64,000 nt of DNA from Syntrophaceae bacterium (lineage in GTDB: Bacteria > Desulfobacterota > BSN033 > UBA1163): assembly GCA_013388645.1 (NCBI GenBank), contig JACAEV010000230.1:1716-65715 (forward strand). Reading direction: 5' to 3'. The position numbers and the translations under genes were made by a program. Each line of letters begins with the position of its first letter. Within the stretch, counting starts at the first letter, position 1. Below, piece by piece: positions 38,741-63,945 of this stretch. A model generated the notes under the pieces. The model saw only the letters and a list, made by a program, of their open reading frames with translations, was not told where the DNA came from and ran no database searches.

Positions 38741-38858
38741 AATTCTTTCCTTTCTTTAGTTGGTTTACCCTTTCGTGGTCAGTATTTCCTATCTCCTCTT
38801 TGACGTGTTCACATCCTACCCTCGCCTCTGAGGAAGCTCCCATAAGCGACGAGGGAGT

Positions 38859-39965
38859 TTAAGCAGGCCGAGCGACCCTTTCTTTCTTCCCTGCCGCAAT
38901 ATTGGCGTTTGAAAGCATTTGCCGAAATTCGTCTAAGTTATGGCTTCGATCCATGGCATCCTCCAAGGAGATCATATGGCGCTCGACCAGTGAAAGAAGA
39001 GCTTGGTTCATCGTCTGCATCCCGAATTTTGCTTGTCCCACTTGCATCAACGAATAAATCTGTTGGATTTTATCCTCCCGAATCAAGTTGCGAATAGCAG
39101 GGTTCGGGATCATGACCTCCATGGCCAAGGCGCGCCCTTTCCCACCGATCTTTGGAATCAGCTGCTGGGCCAACACCCCTTCCAAAACGAAGGAGAGTTG
39201 AGTTCGTATTTGGGTTTGTTGGTGAGGTGGAAAGACATCAATGATACGGTTAATGGTCTCGACACAAGAGTTGGTATGCAAGGTCGCAAAGGTCAGATGA
39301 CCCGTTTCTGCGCAGATGAGGGCGGCTTCGATCGTTTCCAAATCCCTCATCTCTCCGATCAAAATGATGTCCGGATCCTGCCGGAGGATATGCCGGAGCG
39401 CAGCCGAGAAGCTCTTGGTGTCCGAATTGACCTCTCTTTGGTTGACCATACAATTTTTATGGCGATGAAGGTACTCAATCGGATCTTCAATGGTGACGAT
39501 ATGGGCATTTTTTTCATTATTGATTTTATCGATCATCGCCGCTAAAGTGGTTGATTTTCCAGTCCCTGTCGGTCCGGTAACGAGGACGAGACCTTTGGGC
39601 TTCTTGAGGAGTTCATTGGCTACCGGAGGGATTCCCAGTTCAGAAAAATTGAGAATATCAAAAGAGATCGCCCGAAAGGCACCCGCGACTGCTCCACGCT
39701 GCATAAAAATGTTACCCCTGAAGCGACTCAGACCTTTAATTCCAAATGAAAAGTCCAGTTCCCAATCTTCTTCAAATTTATGTCTCTGGGCATCCGTCAA
39801 CACGCTATAACAGAGCCGTTTCGTTTCGGGAGCGGTTAAGATGTTGTTATCGAAGGTCATCAATTTCCCGTCAATCCGAAACTGAGGGGGAGATCCAGTG
39901 GTGATATGTAAATCGGACGCCTTTTTTTCAATCACAATTTCAAGCAATTTTTGTAATTCAGCCAT
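38859..39965 (-). CDS. pilT: Twitching motility retraction ATPase PilT
   Basis: Walker A GPTGTGKSTT, Asp box, Walker B, His box and the PilT-specific AIRNLIRE motif. 368 aa. Confidence 0.85.
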   Translation of the reverse strand: MAELQKLLEIVIEKKASDLHITTGSPPQFRIDGKLMTFDNNILTAPETKRLCYSVLTDAQRHKFEEDWELDFSFGIKGLSRFRGNIFMQRGAVAGAFRAISFDILNFSELGIPPVANELLKKPKGLVLVTGPTGTGKSTTLAAMIDKINNEKNAHIVTIEDPIEYLHRHKNCMVNQREVNSDTKSFSAALRHILRQDPDIILIGEMRDLETIEAALICAETGHLTFATLHTNSCVETINRIIDVFPPHQQTQIRTQLSFVLEGVLAQQLIPKIGGKGRALAMEVMIPNPAIRNLIREDKIQQIYSLMQVGQAKFGMQTMNQALLSLVERHMISLEDAMDRSHNLDEFRQMLSNANIAAGKKERVARPA

Positions 39966-39997
39966 CTCTTTTTTCCTCCGTTGGTTTCATCAAGCAA

Positions 39998-41800: not shown

Positions 41801-42059
41801 ATTTTGCACCCTCTTAAGTTTTCGGAATAATTTAATTTATTAAGAAAGATAAATTTTTGTCAGAAACAGAATAAATATAAGCAAAATAAGTGCCAATTTT
41901 TGCCTGGTTTCAATTATTTGATTTTAATAATTTTTTTGTTTTCCTGATTTTTTATTTTTACAAAATAGTGCGAAACAATGAGGTCACTGGTTAATTATTA
42001 GCCAATATTCATCAAAAAAGGGTGAGGTGGCCTTCTGCGTGGGCGGATAAGGAATTTCT

Positions 42060-49267: not shown

Positions 49268-49312
49268 GGAACCGGCACCTCAACCTCAACCTTAACCTTA
49301 ACCTTAACCTTA
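49268..49312. repeat. Tandem hexamer array (CCTCAA)2(CCTTAA)5 in the divergent mrcA/GT2 intergenic region
   Basis: Perfect head-to-tail 6-nt units, 35 nt upstream of the candidate -35 of the GT2 gene. Confidence 0.8.
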
Positions 49313-49346
49313 ACCTTAACCTTTTTACTCTTTTCTGTATAAATTC

Positions 49347-49374
49347 TTGACTTCTCATTGGGAAGGATATAATA
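49347..49374 (+). promoter_or_regulatory. Candidate sigma-70 promoter for the glycosylation gene cluster
   Basis: TTGACT (49347-52) and TATAAT/ATAATA (49368-49375) with a 15-17 nt spacer. GAGGAG RBS before ATG 49431. Confidence 0.45.
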
Positions 49375-49430
49375 ATAAGTCAATTTTTTCAACTTTTCTA
49401 AGGCGCTTGAAAAAAAGAGGAGATAAGTGA

Positions 49431-50387
49431 ATGGAAGGCAGATTAGAAAAGACTCTTTCGATTCTTATCCCAGTTTTTAATGAGGAGGGAAATCTTTCTC
49501 TCCTATATCAAAAGCTCGATGGGGCATTAAAAAAAGTAAAGACAGCCTATGAAATCATTTTTATCGATGATGGGAGTTCTGATGGAACATTGGAAATTTT
49601 GCTTGATCTTAGAGAAAAAAATCCAAACATCAAGGTAATCAGCTTTTCTCGCAATTTTGGACAAACCGCCGCCCTCAGCGCGGGCATTGACTTCTCGAAA
49701 GGAGATATCATCATACCGATGGATGGTGACCTCCAGAATGACCCAGAGGACATTCTCATTCTTCTCCAAAAAATTGATGAAGGATATGATGTGGTCAGTG
49801 GATGGCGAAAAAGCAGAAAGGATCCTTTTTTGACACGTCGGCTACCCTCTATCGTTGCTAATAAAATCATTTCATGGATCGGAGGTGTCCCACTTCATGA
49901 TTATGGGTGTACCATGAAGGCTTATCGAAGAGATATTTTAAAGAATATTCGCCTTTATGGAGAAATGCATCGATTTATCCCAATCTACGCCCAATGGATC
50001 GGGGCACGGGTATCCGAGATTCCAGTCCACCATTTTTCAAGAGGATATGGAGCATCGAAATATGGAATGAGCAGGGTTTTTAAAGTTATTTTGGATCTTC
50101 TGGTGATCAAGTTCCTTCTTAACTATTCTCAGAAACCCATCTATGTTTTTGGAGGGATAGGACTTTTAATGATCTTGGGTGCTTTTTGTGCTGGCTTGTA
50201 TGCACTCTATCTTAAATTTTTTGAGGAAACGTCTTTTATTTTAACTCCTCTTCCATTACTTTGTGCCCTTCTTCTGCTATTGGGCTTTCTTTCAATCCTG
50301 ATGGGTTTCTTAGCTGAAATCTTGACTCGAATTTATTATGAATCGCAAGGGAAACCTACCTATCAAATCAAAGAAACGATTCCATAA
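49431..50387 (+). CDS. GT2 polyprenol-phosphate sugar synthase (DPM1/GtrB/ArnC-like) with two C-terminal TM helices
   Basis: SILIPVFNEE, DDGSSDGT and MDGDLQNDP (DxD) motifs. The C-terminal membrane anchor is typical of Und-P-hexose synthases. Confidence 0.8.
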   Translation: MEGRLEKTLSILIPVFNEEGNLSLLYQKLDGALKKVKTAYEIIFIDDGSSDGTLEILLDLREKNPNIKVISFSRNFGQTAALSAGIDFSKGDIIIPMDGDLQNDPEDILILLQKIDEGYDVVSGWRKSRKDPFLTRRLPSIVANKIISWIGGVPLHDYGCTMKAYRRDILKNIRLYGEMHRFIPIYAQWIGARVSEIPVHHFSRGYGASKYGMSRVFKVILDLLVIKFLLNYSQKPIYVFGGIGLLMILGAFCAGLYALYLKFFEETSFILTPLPLLCALLLLLGFLSILMGFLAEILTRIYYESQGKPTYQIKETIP

Positions 50388-50610
50388 TTACCTATGTTTG
50401 TGGGTCACTCCTGCTTACCAAAGGTGAGCATGGAGGATATGAAATTGATATCATCTATCAACAATAAACGTTCAGCGATGAACAACGAACATTTCATCAT
50501 CCTCTGTGTTCACTGTTCACTGTACCTCGTTTATTGTATGTCACGAGCTCTAAAACGAGTATCGTCACCGTCAGCCTTTTTGATAGTATTGCGGATGCGG
50601 GCACAATAGT

Positions 50611-52524
50611 ATGTGCGGTATTGTCGGACTCCTCACATCAAAAGCAAATGATATTCCAGAAAATAATATTTTGGAAGAAATGCGAGATGTTCTGGTTCAT
50701 CGAGGCCCTGATGATGTGGGGGAATATATCCGCTCTTTAGATGAAAAAGGGCCTTTTGTTTTCTTGGGTCACCGACGCCTGAGTATCATTGATTTAATTG
50801 GCGGCCACCAGCCTCTTTCTAATGAGGATGGAACGGTATGGGTGGTTTTCAATGGAGAGATTTATAATTTCAAAGAATTAAGAGAAACATTGAAGGGGAG
50901 AGGGCACCAATTCCGAACTCAATCCGATACCGAAGTCATTGCCCATGCTTATGAAGAATATGGGGAAGGCTGCTTTCAGTATTTCAATGGAATGTTTGCA
51001 ATTGGAATCTGGGATGAAAAATGGAATCGACTGGTTTTGGCAAGAGATCGCTTGGGGGAAAAACCCCTTTATTATAGTGACATCAATGAGACCTTTCTTT
51101 TCGCCTCTGAATTGAAAACAATGATGCTTTATCCTCTCTTTACCAGAAAGGTCGATTCCCTTTCCTTAATGAAGTATCTCTTCTACGAATTCATCCCCTG
51201 TCCTCATACGATTTTTAATGATGCAAAAAAACTTCCGCCTGCTTCTTATCTCACCTGGCACAGAGGCAAAACGGAAGTTAAGGAATACTGGTCTCCTTTG
51301 GATTTCCTAAAAGGAGAAGAAAATTTTTCAGAGACCGAAGCTATCTTGAGAATAAGGGAGCTTTTGAGGCAATCTGTGAAACGCAGACTTATCAGTGATG
51401 TTCCTCTCGGAATTTTCCTTAGCGGAGGGATTGATTCGAGTACTGTTGCTGCGTTGGCTCAGAAAGAGAATCCAGGGAAAATTGAAACATTTTCAATCGG
51501 TTTCGAAGATGCTTCATTTGACGAGTCAAAATATGCCTCGCTGGCATCCAAACATATTGGGACTAAACATCACGAACAGACCATGACCCCTACTGATTTA
51601 TTAAATATCGTCCCTCAACTTCCAGATATTTTAGATGAACCCATGGCAGACGCTTCTATCCTGCCGACCTATCTCCTTTCTAAATTTACGCGAGAATATG
51701 TGAAGGTGGCACTCGGAGGAGATGGAGGAGATGAACTTTTCGCAGGATATCCCACTTACTTAGCTCATAAAATTGCAAGGCAGTATGAGCAAATTATTTC
51801 TCCCCTCCACCCCATGCTCACTTTCTTAGGTAGCCTTCTTCCCGTTTCGGATAACAATATCAGTTTTGACTTCAAGGTAAAAAAATTCCTTTCCGGCATT
51901 GGTTATTCAGATAGCATTCGTAATTTTATTTGGCTCGGGTCTTTTTCCTTCCCGGATTTCCTTCAAGTTCTATCTCCAAAGATCACTCCTCAGTTTGATC
52001 GAGTCCGATTGGTGGAAGAAATTTTGGCGTATGAAAGGACTTATCCACTGAAAGACCGGACAAGCCTTCTCCAATTTCTTGACCTAAAACTATATCTTCA
52101 GGAAGCTATTTTGGTTAAAGTGGATCGTGCCAGTATGGCATGTTCATTGGAAGTGAGAGCCCCCTTTCTTGATTACGAGTTCGTTGAGTTTATCATGGGA
52201 CTTCCTTCTTCAATGAAGCTAAAAAGATTCACCTCAAAATATATATTGAAAAGGGCTATAGAATCTTACTTACCTAAGGAGGTGGTTTATCGGAAGAAAA
52301 AAGGGTTTGGAGTTCCGATTGCCAAATGGGTGAAGGGCCCCTTGAAAGAACTGTTTGGTGATCTCCTTTCTCCTGACCGAATTGGAAGAGAGGGATTCCT
52401 CAATCCTGAATATGTGACATCTCTTCTCCAAGATCACCTAATGAATAAAAGAGATAATAGAAAGCAACTCTGGACTTTATTGGTTTGGGAACTTTGGGTA
52501 AACCGATATCAACCCTTACTTTGA
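50611..52524 (+). CDS. asnB: Asparagine synthase (glutamine-hydrolysing), AsnB family amidotransferase
   Basis: N-terminal nucleophile MCGIVG, PP-loop SGGIDSS, and a C-terminal synthetase domain. 637 aa. Confidence 0.85.
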   Translation: MCGIVGLLTSKANDIPENNILEEMRDVLVHRGPDDVGEYIRSLDEKGPFVFLGHRRLSIIDLIGGHQPLSNEDGTVWVVFNGEIYNFKELRETLKGRGHQFRTQSDTEVIAHAYEEYGEGCFQYFNGMFAIGIWDEKWNRLVLARDRLGEKPLYYSDINETFLFASELKTMMLYPLFTRKVDSLSLMKYLFYEFIPCPHTIFNDAKKLPPASYLTWHRGKTEVKEYWSPLDFLKGEENFSETEAILRIRELLRQSVKRRLISDVPLGIFLSGGIDSSTVAALAQKENPGKIETFSIGFEDASFDESKYASLASKHIGTKHHEQTMTPTDLLNIVPQLPDILDEPMADASILPTYLLSKFTREYVKVALGGDGGDELFAGYPTYLAHKIARQYEQIISPLHPMLTFLGSLLPVSDNNISFDFKVKKFLSGIGYSDSIRNFIWLGSFSFPDFLQVLSPKITPQFDRVRLVEEILAYERTYPLKDRTSLLQFLDLKLYLQEAILVKVDRASMACSLEVRAPFLDYEFVEFIMGLPSSMKLKRFTSKYILKRAIESYLPKEVVYRKKKGFGVPIAKWVKGPLKELFGDLLSPDRIGREGFLNPEYVTSLLQDHLMNKRDNRKQLWTLLVWELWVNRYQPLL

Positions 52525-52551
52525 TTTTATCTTATCAGTGTCAATGCTCCC

Positions 52552-54495
52552 ATGAATCTCTTCTTGCAATTTGTTTATATGATTGCCTTTGGCGCAATGT
52601 GTTGGTCTGTGGGGGACCTACTCCTCAAGGTTTTCTTGAGAAAAAAAGTTGTTTTGCCCACTCTGGGACGTTATAGCCTTTCTTTTGCTACAGGAAATGT
52701 CGCGCTCTCTTATTTTCTAACGGGACTCGGGTTCTTCGGAGGTTTTGTATCTACAGTACTTTGGACAGTATTTATTGGAGGAATTGGAATAACCCTATGG
52801 CATATCGCTGAAGAGTTCATAAAATACACTCGTTCGAGGTCTTCCAGTCAAGAAAGTCAGGAGAAAATAGAAAATAAAGGGGAAAGGGTTCTATTTATTC
52901 TTTTAATGGTAATCATTGGGTTATTTTTTATCTCCGCGATTCTGCAAGCCGCAGCACCACCTTACCTCCGCGACTCTTTGGTCTACCACCTCTTGTGCCC
53001 AAAAGAATATTTGAAAATAGGCCATCTCATGCATATCGAAGGAAATATTTTTTCAGCCTTTCCCAAAGGGCATGAAGTTCTCATGACCCTCCTTTTGTTT
53101 ATAGGAGGTGACCGCGCTGCCCAGGGATTCTCTATTCTCCAACAACTTGCTGCGATTGGGGAACTCTATGGATTGACATACCTAATGGCTGGGAGTTTGT
53201 CAGCTTCGCTCTGTGTCATCGGATACGCCACCGTCCCTCCTGTCATCTACTATTCAGGGTGTGGCTACGTTGAACCAGCTCTTCTCATGACCCTTGGGGC
53301 AAGTCTTTTGGTCTTATTCCTTTTGTTTGAATTCAGAAAAGAAAATAATCTATCTGATAACGAGGGCTTGGAATATATTTCATTACTTGGATTCCTGGCG
53401 GGTTGGTTGCCTGCACTCAAGTATAATGGATTAATTTACCTTGGGTTGATCGGCTTGACCCTCTTGTGGGGATATAGGAGAGTTGCTTTTAAAAAAGCAC
53501 TGAATGTGATTGGGGTGTTTAGCCTTTCTGCGGCACCTGGTTTTTCTTGGATGTCCTGGAACTGGCTAACCCTGGGAAATCCTGTTTATCCCATGGCCTG
53601 GTTTCTTTTTGGCGGAAAAGGTTGGGATGAAACCAGGGCCGTTGCAATGTCGCAGTATTTTGATATTTACGGCATGGGAAGGAATCTATTAGACTACCTA
53701 TTATTACCCTGGCGTTTGGCCTTCTCAGGAAGATTTGATACGATTCGTTTTGATGGCACCATTGGACCATTTCTCATCATTGTTCTTATTTTAGTGATAG
53801 CTGCGATCATAAAATTGATTCATCAGGGATTGAACAACAAGGTGACGAAAGAGACAGGTTTAATGTTCCTTGTATCAACTCTTTTCTTCATATTTGGAAC
53901 CCAGCAGGTTAGGTTCTGGCTCCCTTCTCAAATGTTAGCATGTGTCTTCGTTGCCCCTATCGTAGGGTTACTTGTGGATTTTACTAAAACAAGAAGGATG
54001 TTAAAAATATCCATCATCTTGATTTTGGCTGCGTCACTCGCTTGGAATATATGGTTTCTCGGTAAGCAATTTCTGACGGTTGGTTATTATAGGCCAGTCT
54101 TAGGTATGGAGAAAGAGAAAGATTTTCTAATTCGAAAAGTTCCAGGTTACCCTGCCATAGAATTTATCAACCAGAATCTACCCGCAAGTTCTCATTTGCT
54201 CTGTGTATGGACAGGCACATATGGTTATTACTTAAACCGCAAATATTACTCCGACACTTTCATAGAAGACTTTACTATAAAAAAATTCTTTCAGGCTTCA
54301 ATGAATGGCGAAGAATTATCTCAGAAGTTGACCCAGGCTGGATATACTCACCTATTTTTGAATTTTTTGATATTTGAAAAAAACATGGGGCAAAACGAAC
54401 GACTTATCTTCGATGACTTTTTATTGAAAGGGACCCGTGAGCTTTTTCGATTCCAGAACTTCAGAGTTTTGGAGATTTTCTCCTCATCCCATTGA
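52552..54495 (+). CDS. Large polytopic membrane protein, possible GT-C-type glycosyltransferase or glycan-processing protein
   Basis: At least 12 predicted TM helices over ~480 aa, then a soluble C-terminal domain. No named family recognised. It sits inside the GT2/GT-C cluster. Confidence 0.45.
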   Translation: MNLFLQFVYMIAFGAMCWSVGDLLLKVFLRKKVVLPTLGRYSLSFATGNVALSYFLTGLGFFGGFVSTVLWTVFIGGIGITLWHIAEEFIKYTRSRSSSQESQEKIENKGERVLFILLMVIIGLFFISAILQAAAPPYLRDSLVYHLLCPKEYLKIGHLMHIEGNIFSAFPKGHEVLMTLLLFIGGDRAAQGFSILQQLAAIGELYGLTYLMAGSLSASLCVIGYATVPPVIYYSGCGYVEPALLMTLGASLLVLFLLFEFRKENNLSDNEGLEYISLLGFLAGWLPALKYNGLIYLGLIGLTLLWGYRRVAFKKALNVIGVFSLSAAPGFSWMSWNWLTLGNPVYPMAWFLFGGKGWDETRAVAMSQYFDIYGMGRNLLDYLLLPWRLAFSGRFDTIRFDGTIGPFLIIVLILVIAAIIKLIHQGLNNKVTKETGLMFLVSTLFFIFGTQQVRFWLPSQMLACVFVAPIVGLLVDFTKTRRMLKISIILILAASLAWNIWFLGKQFLTVGYYRPVLGMEKEKDFLIRKVPGYPAIEFINQNLPASSHLLCVWTGTYGYYLNRKYYSDTFIEDFTIKKFFQASMNGEELSQKLTQAGYTHLFLNFLIFEKNMGQNERLIFDDFLLKGTRELFRFQNFRVLEIFSSSH

Positions 54496-54498
54496 AAT

Positions 54499-56046
54499 TC
54501 ATTCGATCGGTATATCAATCCCTCTTTCTCCTGGGGATTTAGGGTCCCAGAGAAAAAGATACATGGAGGCATCAGTTGGAAATTTATTGAAATTGAGAAA
54601 ACTTCCATCAAAATAACCCTTTAAAACAGCTGGAGAGTTTCCCTTCAATTTTTTCGCAGTCTTTTCTCCTGTAACAATCCATAATCGGCTACCATCTTCA
54701 ATATATCTGGTACAACAGGTTTTGGAATAATATATCGTATATTTCTTATTTTGAAAAATGAACGATTTTCTGAACTCAATCTCATTTTCTGAAATTTTAA
54801 AATAGGGAATCGAATAATGCCGTCCTTCAGGATATACCCCAAAATAATGAAGGATGCCTGGCATATAAGCCATGTCGCTATCAAAAAGTTTATCTCCCTC
54901 TCGAAGCTGATTTTTTAAGTAACTGACAAGGCCCCTGAAATCCTCCTTCTCAGCGTGGTAATAAGGTGGAAGAATCACAAGATTAGATGCGATAAAGAGG
55001 ATAACAAAAAGGAGTCTTAGTCGCATTATTTTTTTTAATTTTTCAAATCTATTTTCAATAGCACTAAGGGACATATATAGGGTAATAAGGAAAAGAGGCA
55101 AAAAACTGATAAGATACCTCGAGGTAATGAAATGGAAAATATTAAATAATCTACAAAACAGAAATAGTCCGCCGATCGGTAAGATGAAAAGACCAAAAAG
55201 AATAAGTGCATTCGTCCAAGGTTTTGAAACGAGAAGCAAAGAAATCGAAAGGACTACCGAAACAACCGTGAGAGGGGCATAGGGTGCCCAATCATTTAAC
55301 ACATTAGATAAAATACTCCAAAGAGGGGTAATAACCTTGAGTTCGTAAGGATGGATCATAGATTGACCATGGTAATTTAGGGCCAAGAAAAGTATCCAGG
55401 GAATACAGAGCAAAAGGAGGATACTATTTAAAATTAAAAAATAATAAAAGCGAGGTTTTTTATTTTGCCCATTCACTTGATAGAACCATAAAATCTGGGA
55501 CAGTATAATAAATAAGATGGTGCTATAACTCGTGTAGAATAATGTCGCAAAGGGAAAAGGGATCATTACCAAATATCGTTTTTTTGAAGTCTTCAAATAT
55601 TTTATAAAAAAATAAAGGCTCAAAATCCCTAAAAACATTGTCAGTGAATAGGCTCGTCCATCTTGGGAAAGGCTGATGTGATAGGCCATGAAGGTTAAGG
55701 AAATTGCACATGGAAGGCCAATAGCTGGAGAAAATAATCTTGCAAGCAGATAGATCATAGGGATGGAAAGGGTTCCGAAAATTAAAGGAATGATACGAAG
55801 ATCTCGTTCAGGCTTTGTAAATGGATGAAATAAATGAGTAAGAATAAAAAAGAGGGGAGGGTGAAGGTAGGTCGGGTTTTCTTTATAATATTTTAGTTGG
55901 TTTTGGATGTCATCTCGCGAGTCATTGAAAGTGTGAATTTCATCAAGCCATAGAGACTTTTGATCATAAGTATAGATCCGCAGGGTAAAACCTATGAGGA
56001 GGCAAAGAATCAGAATAAATATTTCTTTCCGCTTTGGGTTATTCAT
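54499..56046 (-). CDS. GT-C family glycosyltransferase (GT39/ArnT/PMT_2-like), paralog 1
   Basis: First-loop W.DEIHT..DSRDD acidic motif, YLHPPLFF, at least 10 TM helices, and a C-terminal periplasmic domain. Track TTG at 56121 is replaced by ATG 56046, based on alignment to paralog 2 (MNNPKRKEIFILILCLLIGF vs MNKIVKKDILILILCLIIGF). Confidence 0.65.
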   Translation of the reverse strand: MNNPKRKEIFILILCLLIGFTLRIYTYDQKSLWLDEIHTFNDSRDDIQNQLKYYKENPTYLHPPLFFILTHLFHPFTKPERDLRIIPLIFGTLSIPMIYLLARLFSPAIGLPCAISLTFMAYHISLSQDGRAYSLTMFLGILSLYFFIKYLKTSKKRYLVMIPFPFATLFYTSYSTILFIILSQILWFYQVNGQNKKPRFYYFLILNSILLLLCIPWILFLALNYHGQSMIHPYELKVITPLWSILSNVLNDWAPYAPLTVVSVVLSISLLLVSKPWTNALILFGLFILPIGGLFLFCRLFNIFHFITSRYLISFLPLFLITLYMSLSAIENRFEKLKKIMRLRLLFVILFIASNLVILPPYYHAEKEDFRGLVSYLKNQLREGDKLFDSDMAYMPGILHYFGVYPEGRHYSIPYFKISENEIEFRKSFIFQNKKYTIYYSKTCCTRYIEDGSRLWIVTGEKTAKKLKGNSPAVLKGYFDGSFLNFNKFPTDASMYLFLWDPKSPGERGIDIPIE

Positions 56047-56124
56047 AACAAGCTTATTATTACACCCTGAACATAGCCCTTTTACAAAACAGGCCTCTTG
56101 ACCGTCAGGTAAGGTCTGCAATAT

Positions 56125-57684
56125 TCATTCAATCGGAATATCAATTCCTTTCTCTCCGGGTGATTTGGGATCCCAAAGAAAAAGATACATGGAGGCATCG
56201 CTCGGGAATCTCCTAAACATAGCAAAACTTCCATCAAAATATCCTTTCAAAACACAGGATGGATTTTTCTTCAATTCATCTACCCCAGGCCCTTTTCCGA
56301 GAAGAATCCATAACCGGTTTCCATCTTCGACATATTGAGCATAGGGAATATTCGAATGATAGATAGGAAAATTTCTGTTTTGGGCAATGAGAGACACTTT
56401 AAACTCAAACAGCTTCCCTGGTTCTTTCCATGAGAAGGGAATAACATAATGCCGATTTACTGGATCAACATTGAAATAATGGAGAATCCCAGGAATGTAA
56501 GTATATGTTCCAACAACAAGCTTATCTCCATCTCGAAGGTGGTTATTTAAATAATTCACTAAGCTCCTAAAATCCTGCTTCTCAGAATGATAATAAGGGA
56601 AAAGAATTATGAGATTTGACAAAATAAACAGGATGAGAAATAAATGCTTTGGTCCCAGCCGAATAAATCCTTTTAATTTTTCAAATTTTAATTCTATTGT
56701 ATCAAGGGATAGGTACAAAGTTATAAGAAATAAAGGAAGAAAATTGATATAGTATCTGGATGTAATAAACTGGGTCACCTTTAGTAATTTACAGTATAAA
56801 TAAAGTCCTCCGATAGGGAGAATAAAAAGGGCTACGAGGATCAAACTGTTTTTTTTATTTTTAGAAAAAATTGGGAAAAGAATTAATAGAATCAGGGAAA
56901 CAATGCTCAAAGGCGGAAGTGGTGCCCAATCATTAAACATCCCTAACATGATATTTGGAAAAGAGTCAATATCTTGAATAGTAATAGGATCCATAACCGG
57001 TTGACCTTTGTAGTTCAATACAATAAAAAGAATCCACGGAAAACAAAGAGATAGGGTTAATCCGATTAACAGGGAAAGGGAAGAAATAATGGATTTCGTT
57101 TTCTTTTCATTCAATTGATAGAGCCAAACCAATTGGCTAAAAACAATAAATATAATAGTGCTGTAACTCATGTAAAATAAAGTGGCAAAAAAGAAAGCGG
57201 CAGGAATAAGGTATCGCTTTTCTGATGTCTTAAGGTGCCTCATTAATAAATAAAGAGCTGCCATCCCAAAAAACATGATCAAAGAATACATTCGGCCATC
57301 CTGGGAAAAGTAAATATGGTATGTCATGAAAGTCAAAGATAGGGTACATGGAAGGGCGATGGCAGAAGAAAACAATCTTGACAAGAAATAAAACATTGGC
57401 ATTGAAAGGACTCCGAAGATTAAAGGGAGAATGCGAAGGTCTTTTTCTGGCTTTGTAAATGGATAGAATGTGTGAGTGAGAACAAAAAAAAGTGGAGGGT
57501 GAAGATAGGTTGGGTTGTCTTTGTAATATTTCAATTGTCCCTGGATGTCATCTCTTGAATCATTATAAGTATGGATTTCATCAATCCAGAGAGATTTTTG
57601 GTCGAAGGTATAGAATCGCAGGGCGAATCCTATAATGAGACATAGAATAAGAATGAGGATATCTTTCTTCACAATTTTATTCAT
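56125..57684 (-). CDS. GT-C family glycosyltransferase (GT39/ArnT/PMT_2-like), paralog 2
   Basis: Same architecture as paralog 1. The ends are near-identical (...ASMYLFLWDPKSPGEKGIDIPIE). Confidence 0.65.
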   Translation of the reverse strand: MNKIVKKDILILILCLIIGFALRFYTFDQKSLWIDEIHTYNDSRDDIQGQLKYYKDNPTYLHPPLFFVLTHTFYPFTKPEKDLRILPLIFGVLSMPMFYFLSRLFSSAIALPCTLSLTFMTYHIYFSQDGRMYSLIMFFGMAALYLLMRHLKTSEKRYLIPAAFFFATLFYMSYSTIIFIVFSQLVWLYQLNEKKTKSIISSLSLLIGLTLSLCFPWILFIVLNYKGQPVMDPITIQDIDSFPNIMLGMFNDWAPLPPLSIVSLILLILFPIFSKNKKNSLILVALFILPIGGLYLYCKLLKVTQFITSRYYINFLPLFLITLYLSLDTIELKFEKLKGFIRLGPKHLFLILFILSNLIILFPYYHSEKQDFRSLVNYLNNHLRDGDKLVVGTYTYIPGILHYFNVDPVNRHYVIPFSWKEPGKLFEFKVSLIAQNRNFPIYHSNIPYAQYVEDGNRLWILLGKGPGVDELKKNPSCVLKGYFDGSFAMFRRFPSDASMYLFLWDPKSPGEKGIDIPIE

Positions 57685-57804
57685 TCGGGCAGTCCCACTT
57701 TAAGATGCTCCATTTTTTATAGCAATAATTAAGCCAATTGATTTCTTACGGGAGTGGACATTGGGATTTTGAAAGGCCCCTTCAATATCATAAGGCATCG
57801 CTTT

Positions 57805-58596
57805 TTAATTTTTTTTAAGACGAATCACATATCTTAATGGAAACCAAAAAAAAGGAATTCTCTTTACCCGGGTCACCTTGAAAGACTTTGCAAAAAGGCT
57901 ACGCCACATCTTCAATGTGTAAGTATGGAGATGCCATTCATCCTCCATTCTTTCAGGCATTTCTCCATACTCCGCCTTTCTACGGAGCAACCAGTTAAAT
58001 ATTCCAATCTTTATCAAGATCCTTTTGGTTCGATTAATCCAAATTTCATTGGGTATTGAGATGACTGCTACACCATTGAAGTCTAAAGTCCTTTTCATTT
58101 CATGGATCGCAATCAAAGGATCTAAGAGGTGTTCAAGAACCTCCGAACAAATAATATGTGTAAATATTTCATCTTTACAAGGAAGATTCTGAACATCTGC
58201 CTGGAAGAAGTGTACGACCCCTTTAAGTTTCTGGTTTGCTTTGCCCAGGATAAAACTGGAAATATCAACACCAAATAACTTTCCTTCGGTTACATCTTTG
58301 ATTACGTTACCCGCCCCACAGCCGACTTCGATAACACGGTCATCTTTATTAGTTTTCAATAGTTTGATGATAGTTTTAACCCTTTTACGTTCGATAAAAC
58401 GAACAAAGGGATTGGGATGCTTATGAAATGCATCTGGATCATACTTTTTCACCATCAATTCATTCCATTGTCTAAATTCTTCAGGTTTGATTCTGTTCAA
58501 GAAGATCCCTTCTTTTCTAATGAAATCTAATGAAACTGAATATACATAAAGAAATGTTGGAATTAATTTCTTTATGAACTGCTTGGTTTTTATCAT
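57805..58596 (-). CDS. Class I SAM-dependent methyltransferase
   Basis: Motif I VIEVGCGAGNV, motif II (D...VQNLP) and motif III (IICSEVLEHL). ATG at 58596 has an AAAAGGA RBS; the track start is 58671. Confidence 0.65.
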   Translation of the reverse strand: MIKTKQFIKKLIPTFLYVYSVSLDFIRKEGIFLNRIKPEEFRQWNELMVKKYDPDAFHKHPNPFVRFIERKRVKTIIKLLKTNKDDRVIEVGCGAGNVIKDVTEGKLFGVDISSFILGKANQKLKGVVHFFQADVQNLPCKDEIFTHIICSEVLEHLLDPLIAIHEMKRTLDFNGVAVISIPNEIWINRTKRILIKIGIFNWLLRRKAEYGEMPERMEDEWHLHTYTLKMWRSLFAKSFKVTRVKRIPFFWFPLRYVIRLKKN

Positions 58597-58873
58597 AATC
58601 AATCCTTTTAAGTCAAACCTATAAATATTTACAGAGATTTGAACCAGAAAGATTACTTGTATATGAATCATTGGAATCCATCTTTAAGGATTTTGTTTTT
58701 AGAGACTATTGTTAACAAAAATTGTCATTAAAAAGACAAAAAGTGTGAATTATTCTCGAATTTAAAGACTGAAAGAACTCACTTGTTATATTTTCAAAAA
58801 ATAAAGAGTAATAAAAATGAAAGAACATTAAATAGTTATATCTTTTTATCAAATATTCTATAAGCATCAAGTG

Positions 58874-58891
58874 TTGGCACAAAATATGCTA
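58874..58891 (+). promoter_or_regulatory. Candidate sigma-54 (-24/-12) promoter upstream of the pilin genes
   Basis: TTGGCACaaaatATGCT has GG and GC separated by exactly 10 nt, as in the TGGCAC-N5-TTGC consensus. A sigma-54 activator, PilR, is encoded in the window. Confidence 0.5.
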
Positions 58892-59034
58892 AATCATAAA
58901 CATAAAAATTTTAAGAAGGAGGTGAATATAAAAGATAAAAGAGCAGATAGTTTTATAAGATGTTATAGGAGTAGGTGAACACGTTACCAAAAAAAACCAG
59001 ACAAACTAAATAGACCAAAAAGGAGGTTTTAATT

Positions 59035-59466
59035 ATGTTAAGGAGAGAAAAAGGTTTTACATTGATTGAGTTGTTGATCGTTATTGCCATCATCGGTATT
59101 TTGGCCGCTATCGCCATTCCGATGTATAAGACACAGACAATCAAAGCGAAAATGACAGAAGTCACAAATGGGATGAGTAATGTGGCAAGCGCAGTGGCTG
59201 CCTATATGCAGGAAACAGGCGGTTGGCCTACTGCTGGATCTGCAGCACTAATTCAGAGTAGCTTAGGTGTATCAACCGGAGCCCTATCAAGAATTTCCTC
59301 TCTCGCAGTAAATCAAGGTGTAATTACTGCAGTGGTAACAGCTATTGATGCAACCGTTGATGGCAGAAATTTAGTTATGACTCCGACTTCAAATGCAGAT
59401 GGCTCTATAATCTGGAACTGGACCACTACAAACAATATGCCACCTGCGTATATTCCTAAACGGTAA
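59035..59466 (+). CDS. pilA: Type IVa major pilin (PilA-like)
   Basis: Prepilin leader MLRREKG|[22 protein letters not shown] with Glu at +5. AAAGGAGG RBS. The C-terminal segment is Ser/Thr-rich (TPTSNADGS...WTTTNN). Confidence 0.85.
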   Translation: MLRREKGFTLIELLIVIAIIGILAAIAIPMYKTQTIKAKMTEVTNGMSNVASAVAAYMQETGGWPTAGSAALIQSSLGVSTGALSRISSLAVNQGVITAVVTAIDATVDGRNLVMTPTSNADGSIIWNWTTTNNMPPAYIPKR

Positions 59467-59496
59467 TTTAAAAATTCGTGGAGTTTAACTTTCTCT

Positions 59497-59552
59497 TTTG
59501 TTGGTGCTCGAAGACTGTTAATTTCTTCGGGCACCAACAAATCTTTTTTATT
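59497..59552 (+). terminator. Rho-independent terminator between pilin 1 and pilin 2
   Basis: TTGTTGGTGCTCGAAG...CTTCGGGCACCAACAA stem (one G-U) followed by ATCTTTTTTATT. Confidence 0.7.
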
Positions 59553-59589
59553 GTGAAAGTAAATCTTTACTGTGCAGTAAGGATTTAAA

Positions 59590-60033
59590 GTGAAAAAAAA
59601 TAACCCAGGCTTTACTCTGATTGAATTATTAGTGGTTATTGCAATCATAGGCATTTTGGCCGCTGTTGCGCTTCCAATGTACAGAGGCTATACGGTTATG
59701 GCTAAATTGTCTGAAGTGGAGAATGCAATGTCCACTGTTGCAAGTGGCCTTACAGGATATTATCACGAACAAAATTCTTGGCCTGATTGTCCTACGATAA
59801 ATGAGGTCAGAAACAGTTTGGGGGTGTCATTGGGGGCAATCTCACGGGTTTCTGCATTATCTGTTTCAGGTGTGAATGGAATGATTACAGCAACAATACA
59901 AGATATTCATTTTATGGTGGACGGAAAAACATTAACATTGACACCGAGTACAAGTAACGATAGTTCAATAACTTGGAATTGGGGATGGTCCCTTGATTTT
60001 CCTCCTCAGTTTAGACCTAAAAGTGGCAGGTAA
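59590..60033 (+). CDS. Type IVa pilin paralog
   Basis: MKKNNPG|[25 protein letters not shown] start with AAGGA RBS. C-terminal S/T-rich [14 protein letters not shown] parallels pilin 1. Confidence 0.8.
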
Positions 60034-60035
60034 AG

Positions 60036-60425
60036 ATGAAATCAAAAAAAGGAATTACATTGATAGAATTATTGGTCGTGATCGTGATTGTAGGTGTTCT
60101 TGCAGCCATAGCTGTTCCTCTTTATACGAATTATATGCAAAGAGCCCGGAGAGCCGATGCCAAAACAGCATTGGAGCAGTTAAGGGCAGCACAAGAGATG
60201 TTTAGGGCAGAAAGAGGGGTTTATTCCACGGATATCGCCCAGCTGAGAGGAACATGGGGGGTACCTGCTGTATCCGGAGATTATGCTATATTATTAAACT
60301 CAGCAACCGCAACCACTTTTCTTGGGCAAGCTGATCCGAGTGGAAGTCCAAGGCAGGCGAGTGACGGAAGCTTATTTATTAATCAGGATGGGGTTAAAAC
60401 CCCTGCGGACAAATGGGCCAAATGA
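60036..60425 (+). CDS. Minor pilin, PilE/FimT-like
   Basis: MKSKKG|[22 protein letters not shown]; YTNYMQRARRADAKTALEQL resembles the PilE/FimT-type minor-pilin motif. It overlaps the pilin 2 stop. Confidence 0.7.
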   Translation: MKSKKGITLIELLVVIVIVGVLAAIAVPLYTNYMQRARRADAKTALEQLRAAQEMFRAERGVYSTDIAQLRGTWGVPAVSGDYAILLNSATATTFLGQADPSGSPRQASDGSLFINQDGVKTPADKWAK

Positions 60426-60563
60426 AGTATTTTCCATGGATTAAAGGAATGGTGGAAGAATGGAATGATGGGAAAGGAAAGGGCAGGGGGAATAATGGAA
60501 GGGTGGAAGGATGGGTAAAATAACATAAAACATAGGGCATAGAGTATAGAGCTAACTAAATAG

Positions 60564-60598
60564 AAAGCAAGATAATGATTTATCTTGCTTTTTTTATT
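60564..60598 (+). terminator. Rho-independent terminator after the pilin operon
   Basis: AAGCAAGATA...TATCTTGCTT stem followed by TTTTTTTATTT. Confidence 0.6.
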
Positions 60599-60986: not shown

Positions 60987-61397
60987 ATGGCTGAATTCAA
61001 AACAGAGCAAGTAAAGGACAAGCTGGCGCCAATATTTAAGGAAGAAGGGCTACAGCTCGTTTTGCTTTTTGGATCTGTTGCTTCGGGAAAAGAATACAAA
61101 AAAAGCGATATCGACCTTGGATTCTTATTTGATAGACCTATTGATATATTAGCCCTTACTAATCGAGTGATTCAGCTTTTGAAAACGGATAAAGTTGATG
61201 TGGTTGATTTAAGGCGTGCAAGTCCCCTTTTGAAATTTTCAGCAATCCGACAGGGAAAACTGCTTTTTGAACAGACCTTGGGTCTTTTCAATGTCTTTCA
61301 GTCTTTAACTTTCCGAATATATGTTGATACAAAAAAATTACGTGATGCGCAGGAAAAGGCAATTCAAAATTTTCTTGGAGAAAGAGGACTTATATGA
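60987..61397 (+). CDS. mntA: MntA-type nucleotidyltransferase antitoxin (type VII TA)
   Basis: LFGSVASGKEYKKSDIDLGF gives the GS...DxD Pol-beta NTase motif. 136 aa. Confidence 0.8.
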   Translation: MAEFKTEQVKDKLAPIFKEEGLQLVLLFGSVASGKEYKKSDIDLGFLFDRPIDILALTNRVIQLLKTDKVDVVDLRRASPLLKFSAIRQGKLLFEQTLGLFNVFQSLTFRIYVDTKKLRDAQEKAIQNFLGERGLI

Positions 61398-61822
61398 GTC
61401 CCATCGAAGCCCAAATCATCAAAAGGAAACTTGCTGTTATTATAGAAAATCTTAAGACTCTTGAGCCGATTAAGAGCATGAATGCAGATGAATATTTACA
61501 GGATTTATTCAAAAGGAAAGCAACTGAAAGGCTTTTACAAGAATTGATCGAAGCAGCCGTTGATATAAATATACACATAATTGTTGAGACAGGACATACC
61601 GTTCCTGATGATTATTACGAAAGTTTTATAAAAGTAGGGGAACTTAAAATCATTTCTTTAGACCTTGCCCAGAAACTTGCACCCTCAGCGGGTCTTAGGA
61701 ACAGATTGGTCCATGAATATGATCGGCTTGAACATTCCATGGTACTCAAGGCTGTAAATATGGCTGAAGAACTATACTCGAGATACGTTAAAGAAATCAA
61801 TGATTATATTTCAATTGTGTAG
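61394..61822 (+). CDS. hepT: HepT-type HEPN toxin (DUF86)
   Basis: RNRLVHEYDRLE is the R-x4-H HEPN motif. It has a 4-nt ATGA overlap with mntA. Confidence 0.8.
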   Translation: MSPIEAQIIKRKLAVIIENLKTLEPIKSMNADEYLQDLFKRKATERLLQELIEAAVDINIHIIVETGHTVPDDYYESFIKVGELKIISLDLAQKLAPSAGLRNRLVHEYDRLEHSMVLKAVNMAEELYSRYVKEINDYISIV

Positions 61823-62243: not shown

Positions 62244-63218
62244 ATGGATCTTTCCGTCATTATTCCAATGTTTAATGAATCTGAAAATGCAGAGTCTACC
62301 CTGAATCGGGTTAGGGAGGCATTGGCTTCTTTTAAAGGAAGCTATGAGATTATTCCTGTCAATGACGGAAGCCTCGATAATACTCTTGAGATTTTAAATA
62401 GATTGGCTGAAAAGGATGAGAAGTTAAAGATCGTTACTTACCCCAAAAATATTGGACGTGGAATGGCTTTAAGGAAGGGATTCCAGGAATCAAAAGGAGA
62501 GATTGTCGTATCGATTGACGCTGATTTGAGTTATGACCCTCATTATATATTTGATTTTATCAAGACATTTAAAGAAGGCCCTGAGATTGATTTTGTCCTT
62601 GCATCACCTTATATGCCTGGAGGAGGGGTTCAAAACGTCCCCTTTCATCGATTGTGGATCAGTAAATGGGGAAACAAGATACTTCGTTTAACCATGCCAA
62701 ACCGAATTTATACGTCAACCGGAATATTTCGTGCTTACCGTAAAAAAGTACTTGACTCACTTGAACTTGAGTCTGACGGGAAGGAGATCCATCTTGAGAT
62801 CCTTTCAAAAGCCTTAGCCTTAGGATTCCGGGTTAAGGAAATCCCTGCGGTTTTATCCAGCCGTAGAAAAGGAAAATCAAAATTTAAATTTAAAAAAACA
62901 GCCACTTCCCATCTCGTATTCTCTGCCTTTGAAAAGCCAATGATTATATTTGGTTTCCTTGGCCTGCTAACACTTGGGATTGGATTATTGATGGGTATAT
63001 ATGTAGCCTTTCTGAGATTTTCAGGAGGTTTAACGCCGGGAAGACCATTAATAACGTTTGTCATTTTGTTGATTTTAGGAGGAATTCAAATCCTTTCGTT
63101 TGGGTTTATCGCATTGCAAATAGTTTCGCTTAGAAGAGAAATATTGAGAATCCAGAAGGAAAATCTCGAATTGCGATGCGATCTGAAAGACCTGAATAAG
63201 GGTAATGGCCAGGGTTAA
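62244..63218 (+). CDS. GT2 polyprenol-phosphate sugar synthase paralog with C-terminal TM helices
   Basis: VIIPMFNES, NDGSLDNT and IDADLSYDP (DxD) motifs. Two C-terminal TM helices. The C-terminal codons (..GNGQG*) run into the telomere-like repeat. Confidence 0.75.
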   Translation: MDLSVIIPMFNESENAESTLNRVREALASFKGSYEIIPVNDGSLDNTLEILNRLAEKDEKLKIVTYPKNIGRGMALRKGFQESKGEIVVSIDADLSYDPHYIFDFIKTFKEGPEIDFVLASPYMPGGGVQNVPFHRLWISKWGNKILRLTMPNRIYTSTGIFRAYRKKVLDSLELESDGKEIHLEILSKALALGFRVKEIPAVLSSRRKGKSKFKFKKTATSHLVFSAFEKPMIIFGFLGLLTLGIGLLMGIYVAFLRFSGGLTPGRPLITFVILLILGGIQILSFGFIALQIVSLRREILRIQKENLELRCDLKDLNKGNGQG

Positions 63219-63945
63219 GATGCCCGTTTAGGTAAAGGTTTGGGTTAAGTCCAAACATAGAAAATAAATCATGGGTAAAGGTTAAGGTTAAGACGCCGGT
63301 TTAGTAGTTGGGTTAGGTAATTTGGCTTTAAATCTTTGGCCATAACCTTTACCCTTAACCAAACTGTCCTCCAAGCTTTAACCCTTTTAAGGGAAGACAA
63401 ACGGCATATTGGTAAGGGGCAAGATGCAAGTTTGGATAAGTTGTAAGTGAGGGAAAAATGCCGGACAAAGATAAGAAATCAATAACGAGTTTTAAAGGAC
63501 TGGAGGTCTATCAGAACTCTTACAAAACTTGTACTAAAGTCATGACCCCAATTATACCGAACTTACCTGAATCAGAAAAATATGATTTAAAACGTCAGTT
63601 AAGTGAATCCGTGAAGGCTATACCCAGATTAATCGCTGAAGGATACGCGAAAAGACACCAAAGGCAAGGATTTCAAAAATATTTAGATGATGCTATGGCA
63701 GAGTGCAATGAAACGATCGTAGGGATGGAAATGTGCAAGGATTTCTTTGGAAAATATGTTGACACTAAATTGTGTGAGGAGTTGGTTAGTATCTATGACG
63801 TTTGTGGAAGACAGCTTTACAGGTTGCGGGCTGCCTGGGGAAAGTTCCCAAGAGAAAAGAGTCTTCGGTCTAAAGGTTAGTATGCCTTAACCTATTGTCC
63901 TAACCTAAACGGGCCTCCTAACCTTAACCTTTACCTTGGCCAGAG
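63219..63945. mobile_element. Candidate small inserted element: four-helix-bundle gene bracketed by inverted telomere-like repeats
   Basis: Left arm GCCCGTTTAGGTAAAGG (63222-) and right arm CCTAACCTAAACGGGCctcCTAACCTTAACCTTTACC (63901-63936). They share the inverted 12-mer ACCTAAACGGGC/GCCCGTTTAGGT. A nested 90-nt palindromic unit lies at 63273-63360. Confidence 0.35.
63458..63880 (+). CDS. Four-helix-bundle protein (23S rRNA intervening-sequence protein family)
   Basis: 140 aa, all-helical, with GLEVYQNSYK...LIAEGYAKR...ECNET matching the TIGR02436/PF05635 pattern. Good GAGGGAAAA RBS. Confidence 0.75.
   Translation: MPDKDKKSITSFKGLEVYQNSYKTCTKVMTPIIPNLPESEKYDLKRQLSESVKAIPRLIAEGYAKRHQRQGFQKYLDDAMAECNETIVGMEMCKDFFGKYVDTKLCEELVSIYDVCGRQLYRLRAAWGKFPREKSLRSKG

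Follow-up and report, generated by a model that had tools for sequence, protein, structure and literature searches.

A GT2/GT-C glycosyltransferase locus divergent from type IV pilin genes in Syntrophaceae is a candidate pilin O-glycosylation system

Results

Glycosyltransferase and pilin genes form three transcription units

Here we describe a glycosylation locus that lies next to three type IV pilin genes in a 64,000-nt stretch (hereafter, the window) of contig JACAEV010000230.1, from a metagenome-assembled genome (MAG) of a Syntrophaceae bacterium (Thermodesulfobacteriota; GCA_013388645.1). The first of its three transcription units, on the plus strand, encodes a membrane-anchored family 2 glycosyltransferase (GT2a, 49431-50387), an AsnB-family glutamine amidotransferase (50611-52524) and a 647-residue membrane protein, TM647 (52552-54495). 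It converges on a minus-strand unit that contains the genes for two GT-C glycosyltransferases, GT-C_B (54499-56046, 515 aa) and GT-C_A (56125-57684, 519 aa), and, as its first gene, that for a class I S-adenosylmethionine-dependent methyltransferase (MTase, 57805-58671); the facing stop codons are 3 bp apart. Across an AT-rich intergenic region of 363 bp the MTase/GT-C unit diverges from the plus-strand genes pilin1 (59035-59466), pilin2 (59590-60033) and pilin3 (60036-60425), and the pilin operon is closed by a strong intrinsic terminator (60562-60593, plus strand), a 14-bp stem followed by a T-run. This organisation, which emerges from the map of open reading frames (ORFs) and a terminator search, differs from that proposed in an initial annotation of the same DNA, where all these genes formed a single ~11 kb block with the pilins downstream of the GT-C and MTase genes.

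The genes that the initial annotation had named are all present, including that for a second membrane-anchored GT2 (GT2b, 62244-63218, plus strand), and comparison with Pfam and NCBIfam models, scored against their gathering scores or cutoffs, returned the expected domains for the membrane-anchored GT2, AsnB, the MTase and the pilins. On its other side GT2a is flanked by the divergent, adjacent gene for PBP1A. The GC content is 0.35 in GT-C_A, GT-C_B and the MTase, 0.40-0.45 in the pilins and 0.40-0.41 in GT2a, AsnB and TM647. We considered a low GC content common to pilins and GT-Cs and rejected it; gene by gene, only the GT-Cs and the MTase are low.

GT2a has the architecture of a polyprenyl-phosphate glycosyltransferase and is followed by an AsnB-family amidotransferase

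GT2a matches PF00535 (E 1e-34) and aligns with the full length of the ArnC model at 204.6 bits (cutoff 529), with PgfS following at 170 bits; GT2b matches PF00535 with E 1.5e-29, and its PgfS, ArnC and AglJ-like matches are all below cutoff. Both proteins combine an N-terminal PF00535 domain with two C-terminal transmembrane (TM) helices and align over their full length to the ArnC and PgfS models. With a cytoplasmic GT-A domain and a C-terminal TM pair they are built like polyprenyl-phosphate glycosyltransferases of the ArnC, GtrB and DPM1 types, and GT2a, which is ArnC/GtrB/PgfS-like, is a predicted polyprenyl-phosphate sugar synthase. GT2a orthologues, 73-89% identical, are present in all the related loci described below, always with AsnB as the next gene, and in several of these loci the two genes are separated by a gap of ~10 bp.

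AsnB contains Asn_synthase (E 2.7e-106) and GATase_7 domains. Its top NCBIfam model is TIGR03108, that of the XrtA/PEP-CTERM amidotransferases, to which residues 1-631 align over positions 1-626 of 628 with 623.6 bits (cutoff 816.9). AsnB also scores above the cutoff of TIGR01536, the generic asparagine synthase model, and with this score a housekeeping role as asparagine synthase would be compatible. WbpS (PGN_1234), an AsnB-family enzyme of the TIGR03108 type, turns a glucuronic-acid sugar into a uronamide (PMC7468200), and by analogy AsnB may amidate a uronic-acid sugar to the uronamide. The window protein shares with WbpS and the TIGR03108 enzymes the AsnB-family architecture and a gene placed among glycosylation genes; it differs in scoring below the model cutoff and in the absence of adjacent Wbp, Vim, exosortase or PEP-CTERM genes, and its sugar substrate is a putative one. 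A nucleotide-sugar dehydrogenase (TIGR03026; closest to the UDP-ManNAc/TviB type) is encoded beside a DegT/DnrJ/EryC1 aminotransferase at 12264-14997 on the minus strand, ~35 kb from the locus, and this pair is a possible source of an amino-uronic sugar for AsnB.

The MTase matches Methyltransf_11, Methyltransf_31 and Methyltransf_23 and has no TM segments; its true start is possibly the Met at 58596. In related loci its place is taken by zero to three differing MTases, variable in number and orientation, which in one locus (L004) overlap GT-C genes. Among ORFs of at least 80 aa between 49 and 64 kb we found no dedicated flippase (GtrA, ArnE/F or MATE), and the only Wzx or MurJ-like gene is in the cluster downstream of GT2b in related loci.

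The tandem GT-Cs belong to a sharply delimited PMT_2-type subfamily

GT-C_A and GT-C_B are 61% identical, and each has a multi-TM profile and a C-terminal tail of ~155 aa. The start of GT-C_B is most likely the ATG at 56046 rather than the TTG at 56121, as judged from the gene call and the alignment. Both proteins match PMT_2 (PF13231), GT-C_B with 29.2 and GT-C_A with 27.6 bits (gathering score 26.1), and GT-C_A reaches 55.5 bits, below cutoff, with the Agl23-like model TIGR03663; neither matches PF02366 or the ArnT NCBIfam equivalog model at E < 0.01. Searches of PDB sequences with GT-C_A, the subfamily profile or TM647 returned no match. A broadened GT-C profile reached STT3A and AglB (E ~6e-6) and ArnT (5ezm, E 4.6e-5), and Pmt1, Pmt2 and Pmt4 were reached by neither the subfamily nor the broad profile. 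Since the broad profile misses Pmt1 and Pmt2 and neither the ArnT nor the PF02366 model matches, the pair is, on sequence criteria, of a generic PMT_2 type that is assignable to neither GT39 nor GT83. Of the initial annotation, the PMT_2-type GT-C pair and its PF13231 match thus stand, while the label 'GT39/PMT' is too specific. An AF2 model of GT-C_A computed from a 12-sequence alignment had a pLDDT of 42.6 and was unusable.

Both GT-Cs carry the motifs SLW[IL]DEIHT and YLHPPLFF that had drawn attention to them. Residues D35 and E36 of the first loop are invariant in the subfamily, HPPL is present in the alignment, and widening the alignment to 59 sequences, with relatives whose identity is 19-25% across the full alignment and 24-33% in the matched stretches, leaves D35, E36, R84 and Q128 invariant. 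The loop-1 motif (W-[IL]-D-E-I-H-T) is common to the wider PMT_2 family and hence not diagnostic of GT39.

An exhaustive search over 1.84 billion cluster representatives found 39 members of the GT-C subfamily at E <= 1e-30, nearly all of them fragments. Below these the identity drops to 24-33%, and since these nearest relatives align only over residues 10 to ~405, the C-terminal domain (~115 aa) is, by alignment, private to the GT-C_A/B clade. GT-C_A has more than 120 homologues at 61-82% identity; all those with a named source are from Thermodesulfobacteriota or 'delta' MAGs. The GT-C paralogues did not arise by recent duplication; they represent old types, among them an A clade and a B clade, that different genomes share. 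The B-type clade of GT-C_B, for example, is also found in L002, L003 and L005. The C-terminal periplasmic domain is highly conserved among these paralogue types, which suggests a constant acceptor rather than a variable polysaccharide, and the presence of multiple GT-Cs points either to different sites or linkages or to a short chain that is assembled step by step in the periplasm. Stepwise chain building is known from the mycobacterial Emb/Aft enzymes and the luminal ALG enzymes. Two related loci also hold GT-C remnants with an internal deletion (L011 11671-12117 and L015 9359-9826), each joining the N-terminal ~110 residues directly to the last ~40; these remnants show recent recombination or deletion in the GT-C array.

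TM647, which had been left as a membrane protein of unknown family, is a third, divergent GT-C-fold glycosyltransferase. The assignment is by fold, and by hhalign its homology to the GT-C pair is not significant. About half of the related loci lack TM647 or have another gene in its place, and it can be regarded as accessory.

The pilin operon has a conserved sigma-54 promoter region

The proteins encoded by pilin1 (no cysteines) and pilin2 are PilA-like type IVa pilins with N_methyl and Pilin domains, and pilin3 is a ComP_DUS/PilE-like pilin (PF16732, E 1e-13, with N_methyl); pilin2 has orthologues in all loci, and those of pilin1 are 50-85% identical. The Ser/Thr-rich segments quoted in the initial annotation (TPTSNADGS..WTTTNN and a second one) are both present. 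In the alignment the Ser/Thr-rich segment is a variable internal loop, not an appended tail, lying between a conserved L-T-L-T-P block and the blocks I-x-W-x-W and PP-x-[YF]-x-P-K, which we take to be the beta-strand and D-region of ordinary type IVa pilins.

The regulatory region was footprinted by aligning 11 orthologous regions. A -24/-12 element, TGGCAC-N5-ATGCT (58875-58890, plus strand; TGGCACAAAATATGCT, one consensus mismatch), occupies the same place ~150 bp upstream of pilin1 in all 11 loci and represents the sigma-54 promoter of the pilin operon. About 155 bp further upstream lies a palindrome, TTGTC-N8-GACAA (58722-58739, strand-neutral), a candidate site for an enhancer-binding protein, perhaps PilR. 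It has a single perfect match in the window; each of ten related loci that include this region likewise has one exact copy, L006 carries a variant that differs by one base, and the palindrome columns are invariant in the 11-locus alignment. Between palindrome and promoter, a further block of conserved columns (58822-58839, plus strand; consensus AATATCA-A-N-TAGTTA) is called IHF-like by its resemblance to the IHF consensus, which we take to be WATCAA-N4-TTR. A Shine-Dalgarno-like element, AAAAGGAGGTGA (58913-58925), recurs at this place in L002-L015. It follows the sigma-54 promoter by ~35 nt and precedes the real ribosome-binding site and ATG by ~110 nt. With no evident start codon or ORF after it, it could be a stabiliser of the 5' untranslated region, a ribosome standby site or a regulatory element.

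The pilus motor and regulatory genes pilB-pilT-pilC-pilS-pilR (34378-41809, minus strand; T2SSE, T2SSF, 6TM_PilS with HisKA, and Sigma54_activat with Response_reg matches) lie ~7.6 kb from the locus. A perfect sigma-54 consensus, TGGCACTTATTTTGCT, is present ~70 bp upstream of pilB (41880-41895, minus strand), and the motor operon thus looks sigma-54 dependent too. The palindrome was not found upstream of pilB and therefore cannot be tied to PilR as a shared site. Given the sigma-54 promoter anatomy and the presence of pilBTC and pilSR in the window, the three pilins are genuine subunits of a type IV pilus. Analogy with the systems of Pseudomonas, Myxococcus and Geobacter makes their control by PilSR/sigma-54 probable.

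Sigma-54-like sites also face the GT-C unit. In the window a weak one, TGGCTTAATTATTGCT (57721-57736, minus strand), lies 37 bp upstream of GT-C_A and has two consensus mismatches. Such sites were found in six of the 11 loci, where ~1.5 are expected, and these represent only ~4 independent versions: L003 and L004 (same sequence), L010, L013, and the window and L011, which share a 15-mer that in L011 lies inside the MTase ORF. The enrichment is marginal, and we regard these sites as suggestive, not significant.

Gene order is conserved in related genomes

The gene order is kept in 13/13 loci of related MAGs with enough flanking sequence: RibF and PBP1A, then GT2a-AsnB followed by TM647, by a protein with TM and tetratricopeptide repeat (TPR) domains or by nothing, then GT-Cs with MTases, then pilin1-pilin2-pilin3 and finally GT2b. 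Each locus carries one to three GT-Cs and zero to three MTases, and in L006, L007 and L010 the set is reduced to its conserved minimum, GT2a-AsnB facing a single convergent GT-C gene. Between AsnB and pilin1 lies a hotspot in which GT-C copy number varies and HepT/MNT pairs and genes for 23S rRNA intervening sequence proteins (23S-IVPs) have been inserted, and the divergent GT-C/MTase-pilin1 layout persists in all 13 despite gain and loss of MTases, toxin-antitoxin genes and GT-C copies. L011 and L101 carry the TM and TPR protein, whose membrane domain scores 25.4 bits against PMT_2 (cutoff 26.1); it is a probable GT-C-TPR protein of TfpW-like architecture.

On the far side of the pilins, GT2b is followed in L003, L005, L011, L100 and L101 by genes for a GT4 enzyme, an HTH_24 protein, a second GT4 and a Polysacc_synt/MurJ-like protein. 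Since it heads this GT4-HTH-GT4-Wzx cluster and overlaps the downstream GT4 gene in L100, GT2b belongs to a polysaccharide pathway. We had considered GT2b as a member of the pilin operon and rejected this on account of the overlap and of the conserved strong terminator that separates them, a homologous hairpin being present between pilin3 and GT2b in L003. A sigma-54-like site, TGGYATAGAAGTTGCT, recurs upstream of the HTH_24 gene (L003 4600, L006 4115, L010 3415, L015 3734 and L012 532, all on the minus strand in locus orientation), which suggests that this cluster may be sigma-54 controlled as well.

Outside the lineage, the nearest GT-Cs are 'GT39'-annotated PMT_2 proteins, mainly of Chloroflexota, Actinomycetota and Myxococcota. 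In two outgroup loci (L019, GCA_034437455.1, P0401, 7189-9449; and L020) a PMT_2 GT-C gene follows, at a distance of 60 bp and in the same orientation, a prepilin peptidase gene (A24_N_bact with Peptidase_A24), which is itself preceded by a gene for a TPR protein; the arrangement is kept only among very close relatives. We examined this PilD-GT-C adjacency as a link to the pilus and rejected it as anecdotal, the gene being directly upstream in 2/68 loci, plus one at 1 kb.

Discussion

We consider it highly probable that the GT2 and GT-C enzymes act in one pathway: GT2a loads a sugar on polyprenyl phosphate, AsnB and possibly one or more MTases modify it, the product is flipped, and the GT-Cs transfer it outside the cytoplasmic membrane. 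Judging from its family and architecture, GT2a would work at the cytoplasmic face and load undecaprenyl phosphate with a sugar (probably a uronic acid derivative) taken from a nucleotide sugar. By analogy, this sugar would then become a uronamide through the WbpS-like AsnB and may be methylated by one or more cytoplasmic methyltransferases. After flipping by a flippase, none being encoded in the locus, the PMT_2-type GT-Cs, of which each genome has one to three old paralogue types, would use their loop-1 Asp-Glu pair to transfer the sugar to a periplasmic acceptor, and in some genomes TM647 or the GT-C-TPR protein may join in. This GT2 plus GT-C enzymology, which the initial annotation had proposed, is borne out by the families, the topology and the invariant Asp-Glu, with TM647 adding a third GT-C; the pilin acceptor named in the same proposal is not established. 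Neither of the two outcomes that would have refuted that proposal was seen: the GT-Cs are not equivalogs of ArnT, and the locus is in every case next to pilins, and next to polysaccharide genes as well. Against the observed gene content, folds and families, promoter and terminator anatomy and gene arrangement, we infer the donor sugar, the order of the steps and, above all, the acceptor.

The adjacent type IV pilins are the single most likely acceptor, to which we assign a probability of roughly 0.4. We favour them because of the divergent regulatory region with its palindrome that pilins and GT-C unit share in 13/13 loci, the sigma-54-like sites toward the GT-C unit together with the proximity of pilBTC-pilSR, the TfpW precedent with the probable GT-C-TPR variant in L011 and L101, and the conserved C-terminal GT-C domain. 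A further reason is that GtrB/PgtC2 provides a precedent of the same logic for protein O-glycosylation. The sugar would sit on the Ser/Thr-rich loop before I-x-W-x-W or on the alpha-beta loop. More tentatively, we propose that the GT-C array O-glycosylates the pilins with an amidated, possibly methylated uronic-acid sugar and is expressed from the regulatory region in which the sigma-54 (PilR?) promoter of the pilins also lies; the GT-C repertoire would then diversify the pilus surface, e.g. against phages.

Several observations weigh against the pilins as acceptor. Adjacency is all that links the locus to the pilins, and it is limited to one lineage; RibF, LepB, PBP1A and nitrilase genes are equally syntenic in these closely related MAGs (PBP1A is mostly 74-89% identical). 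Because housekeeping genes keep the same order in such close relatives, pilin adjacency is no proof of function, and its conservation is no more than inherited synteny would give. Between ~50% and 33% identity the GT-C subfamily has no relatives in which the synteny could be compared independently. In the outgroup, GT-Cs show no pilin link: pilin-like ORFs occur at 2/84 GT-C loci, 3/4 of the contexts are without pilus association, and PilD adjacency is seen in only 2/68 loci of the outgroup family. Within the locus no flippase was found, the pilin operon is transcriptionally self-contained with its own sigma-54 promoter and terminator, and the GT-C and MTase genes (GC 0.35) differ in composition from the pilins (0.40-0.45). 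Upstream of the MTase, conservation of a sigma-54 site is limited to L003 and L004, and the window has none there; the window GT-Cs lack the defining features of TfpW, and the pilins are followed, on their far side, by a Wzx-type polysaccharide cluster.

Several of these points would suit the same enzymology acting on an envelope glycan, with the GT-Cs adding side-branch or terminal sugars, possibly amidated or methylated, to the LPS (lipopolysaccharide) core or O-antigen or to the exopolysaccharide of the GT2b-GT4-GT4-Wzx cluster, and the self-contained pilin operon merely lying inside a surface-glycan region. We regard this as a real possibility that falls short of an even chance. The locus is always beside pilins and always beside polysaccharide genes too, and GT2b overlaps a GT4 gene and heads the GT4-HTH-GT4-Wzx cluster just beyond the pilins. 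Presumably the Geobacter pilA gene, beside the xap polysaccharide genes, is a case of pilin-polysaccharide adjacency without pilin glycosylation. The variable number of GT-Cs and MTases and their low GC resemble serotype-modifying cassettes, amidation of the WbpS type is part of LPS-type sugar pathways, the window has genes for a nucleotide-sugar dehydrogenase and a DegT aminotransferase, and most characterised three-component systems of diderms modify LPS or O-antigen, with genes that can lie in a polysaccharide locus (PMC11127046). However, the GT-Cs are not ArnT equivalogs, and partner genes of the Arn, Lgm or Rgt type are absent; the available flanks show neither a Wzy nor an initiating transferase, and the whole pilin operon with its terminator separates the GT-C unit from the Wzx cluster. 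The high conservation of the C-terminal periplasmic domain among the paralogues fits a constant acceptor better than such a glycan. Moreover, the outgroup GT-Cs come largely from Chloroflexota and Actinomycetota, which argues against an origin in lipid A modification: to our knowledge, these phyla, which make up most of the closest outgroup, have no LPS.

Both other readings are improbable in our view. A general protein O-glycosylation system could serve several periplasmic or membrane-anchored proteins, possibly including the pilins or PBP1A, as do the streptococcal GtrB/PgtC2 and PgfS-dependent systems that modify Ser/Thr-rich regions of PrsA, PBP1a, LytR and PknB (PMC12041528). PgfS is among the top NCBIfam matches of both GT2s, 'GT39' annotations are found in the actinomycetal part of the outgroup, and the PBP1A gene is divergently adjacent to GT2a. 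Yet the GT-Cs are of the PMT_2 type and not YfhO or PF02366 proteins, nothing in the window points to other substrates, and inherited synteny is as likely a reason for the position of PBP1A as for that of the pilins; we rejected PBP1A as an acceptor since its C-terminus has no Ser/Thr-rich disordered tail. Alternatively, there may be no single system, and GT2a-AsnB(-TM647), the MTase/GT-C cassette, the pilin operon and the GT2b cluster would be independent envelope functions that happen to be neighbours. The three or four separate transcription units, the distinct GC of the GT-C/MTase unit and the synteny of the whole region, housekeeping genes included, are compatible with this. It is countered by the need of a GT-C for a polyprenyl-phosphate sugar donor, for which GT2a is the obvious supplier, and by GT2a-AsnB converging on a GT-C in every locus, even where everything between them has been lost (L006, L007 and L010).

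Glycosylation of pilins by a GT-C, the reading that we prefer, has its closest parallel in TfpW, an ArnT-like GT-C of Pseudomonas aeruginosa group IV strains (Pa5196/PA7) that arabinosylates pilin Ser/Thr residues from a polyprenyl-phosphate monosaccharide (bioRxiv 10.1101/2020.04.19.049825). As in the window, a periplasmic GT-C is encoded beside pilA, and the L011/L101 protein probably has the same architecture. However, the TfpW gene lies immediately downstream of pilA and is co-transcribed with it, whereas here the GT-C unit is divergent on the opposite strand and the pilins end in their own terminator. TfpW has a DDX motif, a YX6PFX7P motif and C-terminal TPRs; the window GT-Cs have the invariant DE, no Pro-rich motif, no match to a TPR domain and a private, non-TPR C-terminal domain. 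The YX6PFX7P motif is also absent from TM647 and the L011/L101 TPR proteins. Finally, the TfpW donor is supplied as D-Araf by DprE1/DprE2 with a GtrA-like protein, while here the donor genes are those for an ArnC-like GT2, AsnB and the MTase; none of the proteins of the locus is a DprE1/DprE2, polyprenyl-phosphoribose synthase or GtrA-like protein. As the initial annotation had noted, no PglL/TfpO-type (Wzy_C) enzyme is present among the window ORFs scanned.

The locus also shares the logic of three-component systems (GtrA/GtrB/Gtr, ArnC/ArnEF/ArnT and the GT136 pentofuranose systems), in which a membrane GT2 makes a polyprenyl-phosphate sugar that is flipped and used by a periplasmic GT-C. 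Modification of the carrier-linked sugar is known from the Arn pathway, where it is carried out by ArnD. The locus differs in having no GtrA, ArnE/F or MATE protein and up to four GT-Cs instead of one; its GT-Cs are not equivalogs of ArnT, and no ArnA, ArnD or ArnE/F is present among the proteins of the locus. We found no description of an AsnB amidotransferase as a donor-modifying step in a three-component system.

Actinobacterial Ppm1/Pmt and streptococcal GtrB/PgtC2 or PgfS/Pgf similarly combine a GT2 that makes a polyprenyl-phosphate sugar with a GT-C, bearing a loop-1 DE, that O-glycosylates Ser/Thr residues of extracytoplasmic proteins; the GT2 plus GT-C logic is described for GtrB/PgtC2 (PMC12041528) and in a further report (PMC8698208). 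Pmt belongs to PF02366/GT39 and PgtC2 to the YfhO family, whereas the GT-Cs described here match only PMT_2 (PF13231), are tandem divergent paralogues and come from a diderm host of the Thermodesulfobacteriota. We found no paper describing this gene arrangement, in line with the earlier view that the combination is not a described pilin glycosylation locus.

If the pilins are the acceptor, the locus would represent a third, mechanistically distinct route of pilin O-glycosylation alongside TfpO/PglL and TfpW. It would extend pilin glycosylation by GT-Cs beyond the single Pseudomonas example, TfpW, from which the enzyme subfamily, the uronamide donor chemistry and the combinatorial multi-GT-C design would all differ, and reach into environmentally abundant anaerobes, the Syntrophaceae and Thermodesulfobacteriota of peat, soil and sediment metagenomes. 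Pilus surface chemistry bears on adhesion, aggregation and phage susceptibility and, in syntrophs, on cell-cell contact. Three results would hold even with a polysaccharide acceptor: TM647 represents a divergent GT-C family that is new, the tandem GT-Cs make up a subfamily with sharp limits and a C-terminal domain of its own, and the coupling of AsnB to a GT2/GT-C module adds to the three-component scheme. With genomic context in uncultured MAGs as the evidence base, the present value of the locus is that of a well-defined hypothesis, not a discovery.

Other features of the window and of related contigs

Pairs of MNT (nucleotidyltransferase) and HepT (HEPN) genes are found in the window (60987-61822), in L005 (7108-7970 and ~3810-4064) and in L102 (8-747). 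Their insertion points around the pilin operon vary among genomes, and the window copy parts pilin3 from GT2b. Genes for 23S-IVPs (PF05635, bAvd-like) are present in the window (63458-63880), in L011 (~1700-2434) and in L102 (11633-12019), where the gene sits between the last GT-C and AsnB; their recurrence is a further sign of an insertion hotspot.

Frameshifts interrupt conserved genes in the contigs of Microflora Danica MAGs (L015 5458-15322, L014 1-6490 and L013 17934-19989), and in L015 they are concentrated from GT2b to TM647. We considered that pilins, GT-Cs and GT2b (L015), or the GT-Cs (L014), might be decaying together and rejected this, the PBP1A gene in L013 being frameshifted too. 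The frameshifts probably reflect errors in the long-read consensus, in a region that is low in GC or varies between strains, and not pseudogenes. Finally, elsewhere in the window and unrelated to the glycosylation locus, we noted genes for the selenocysteine-specific elongation factor SelB (5953-7863) and for a CARDB-domain protein (10-1452).

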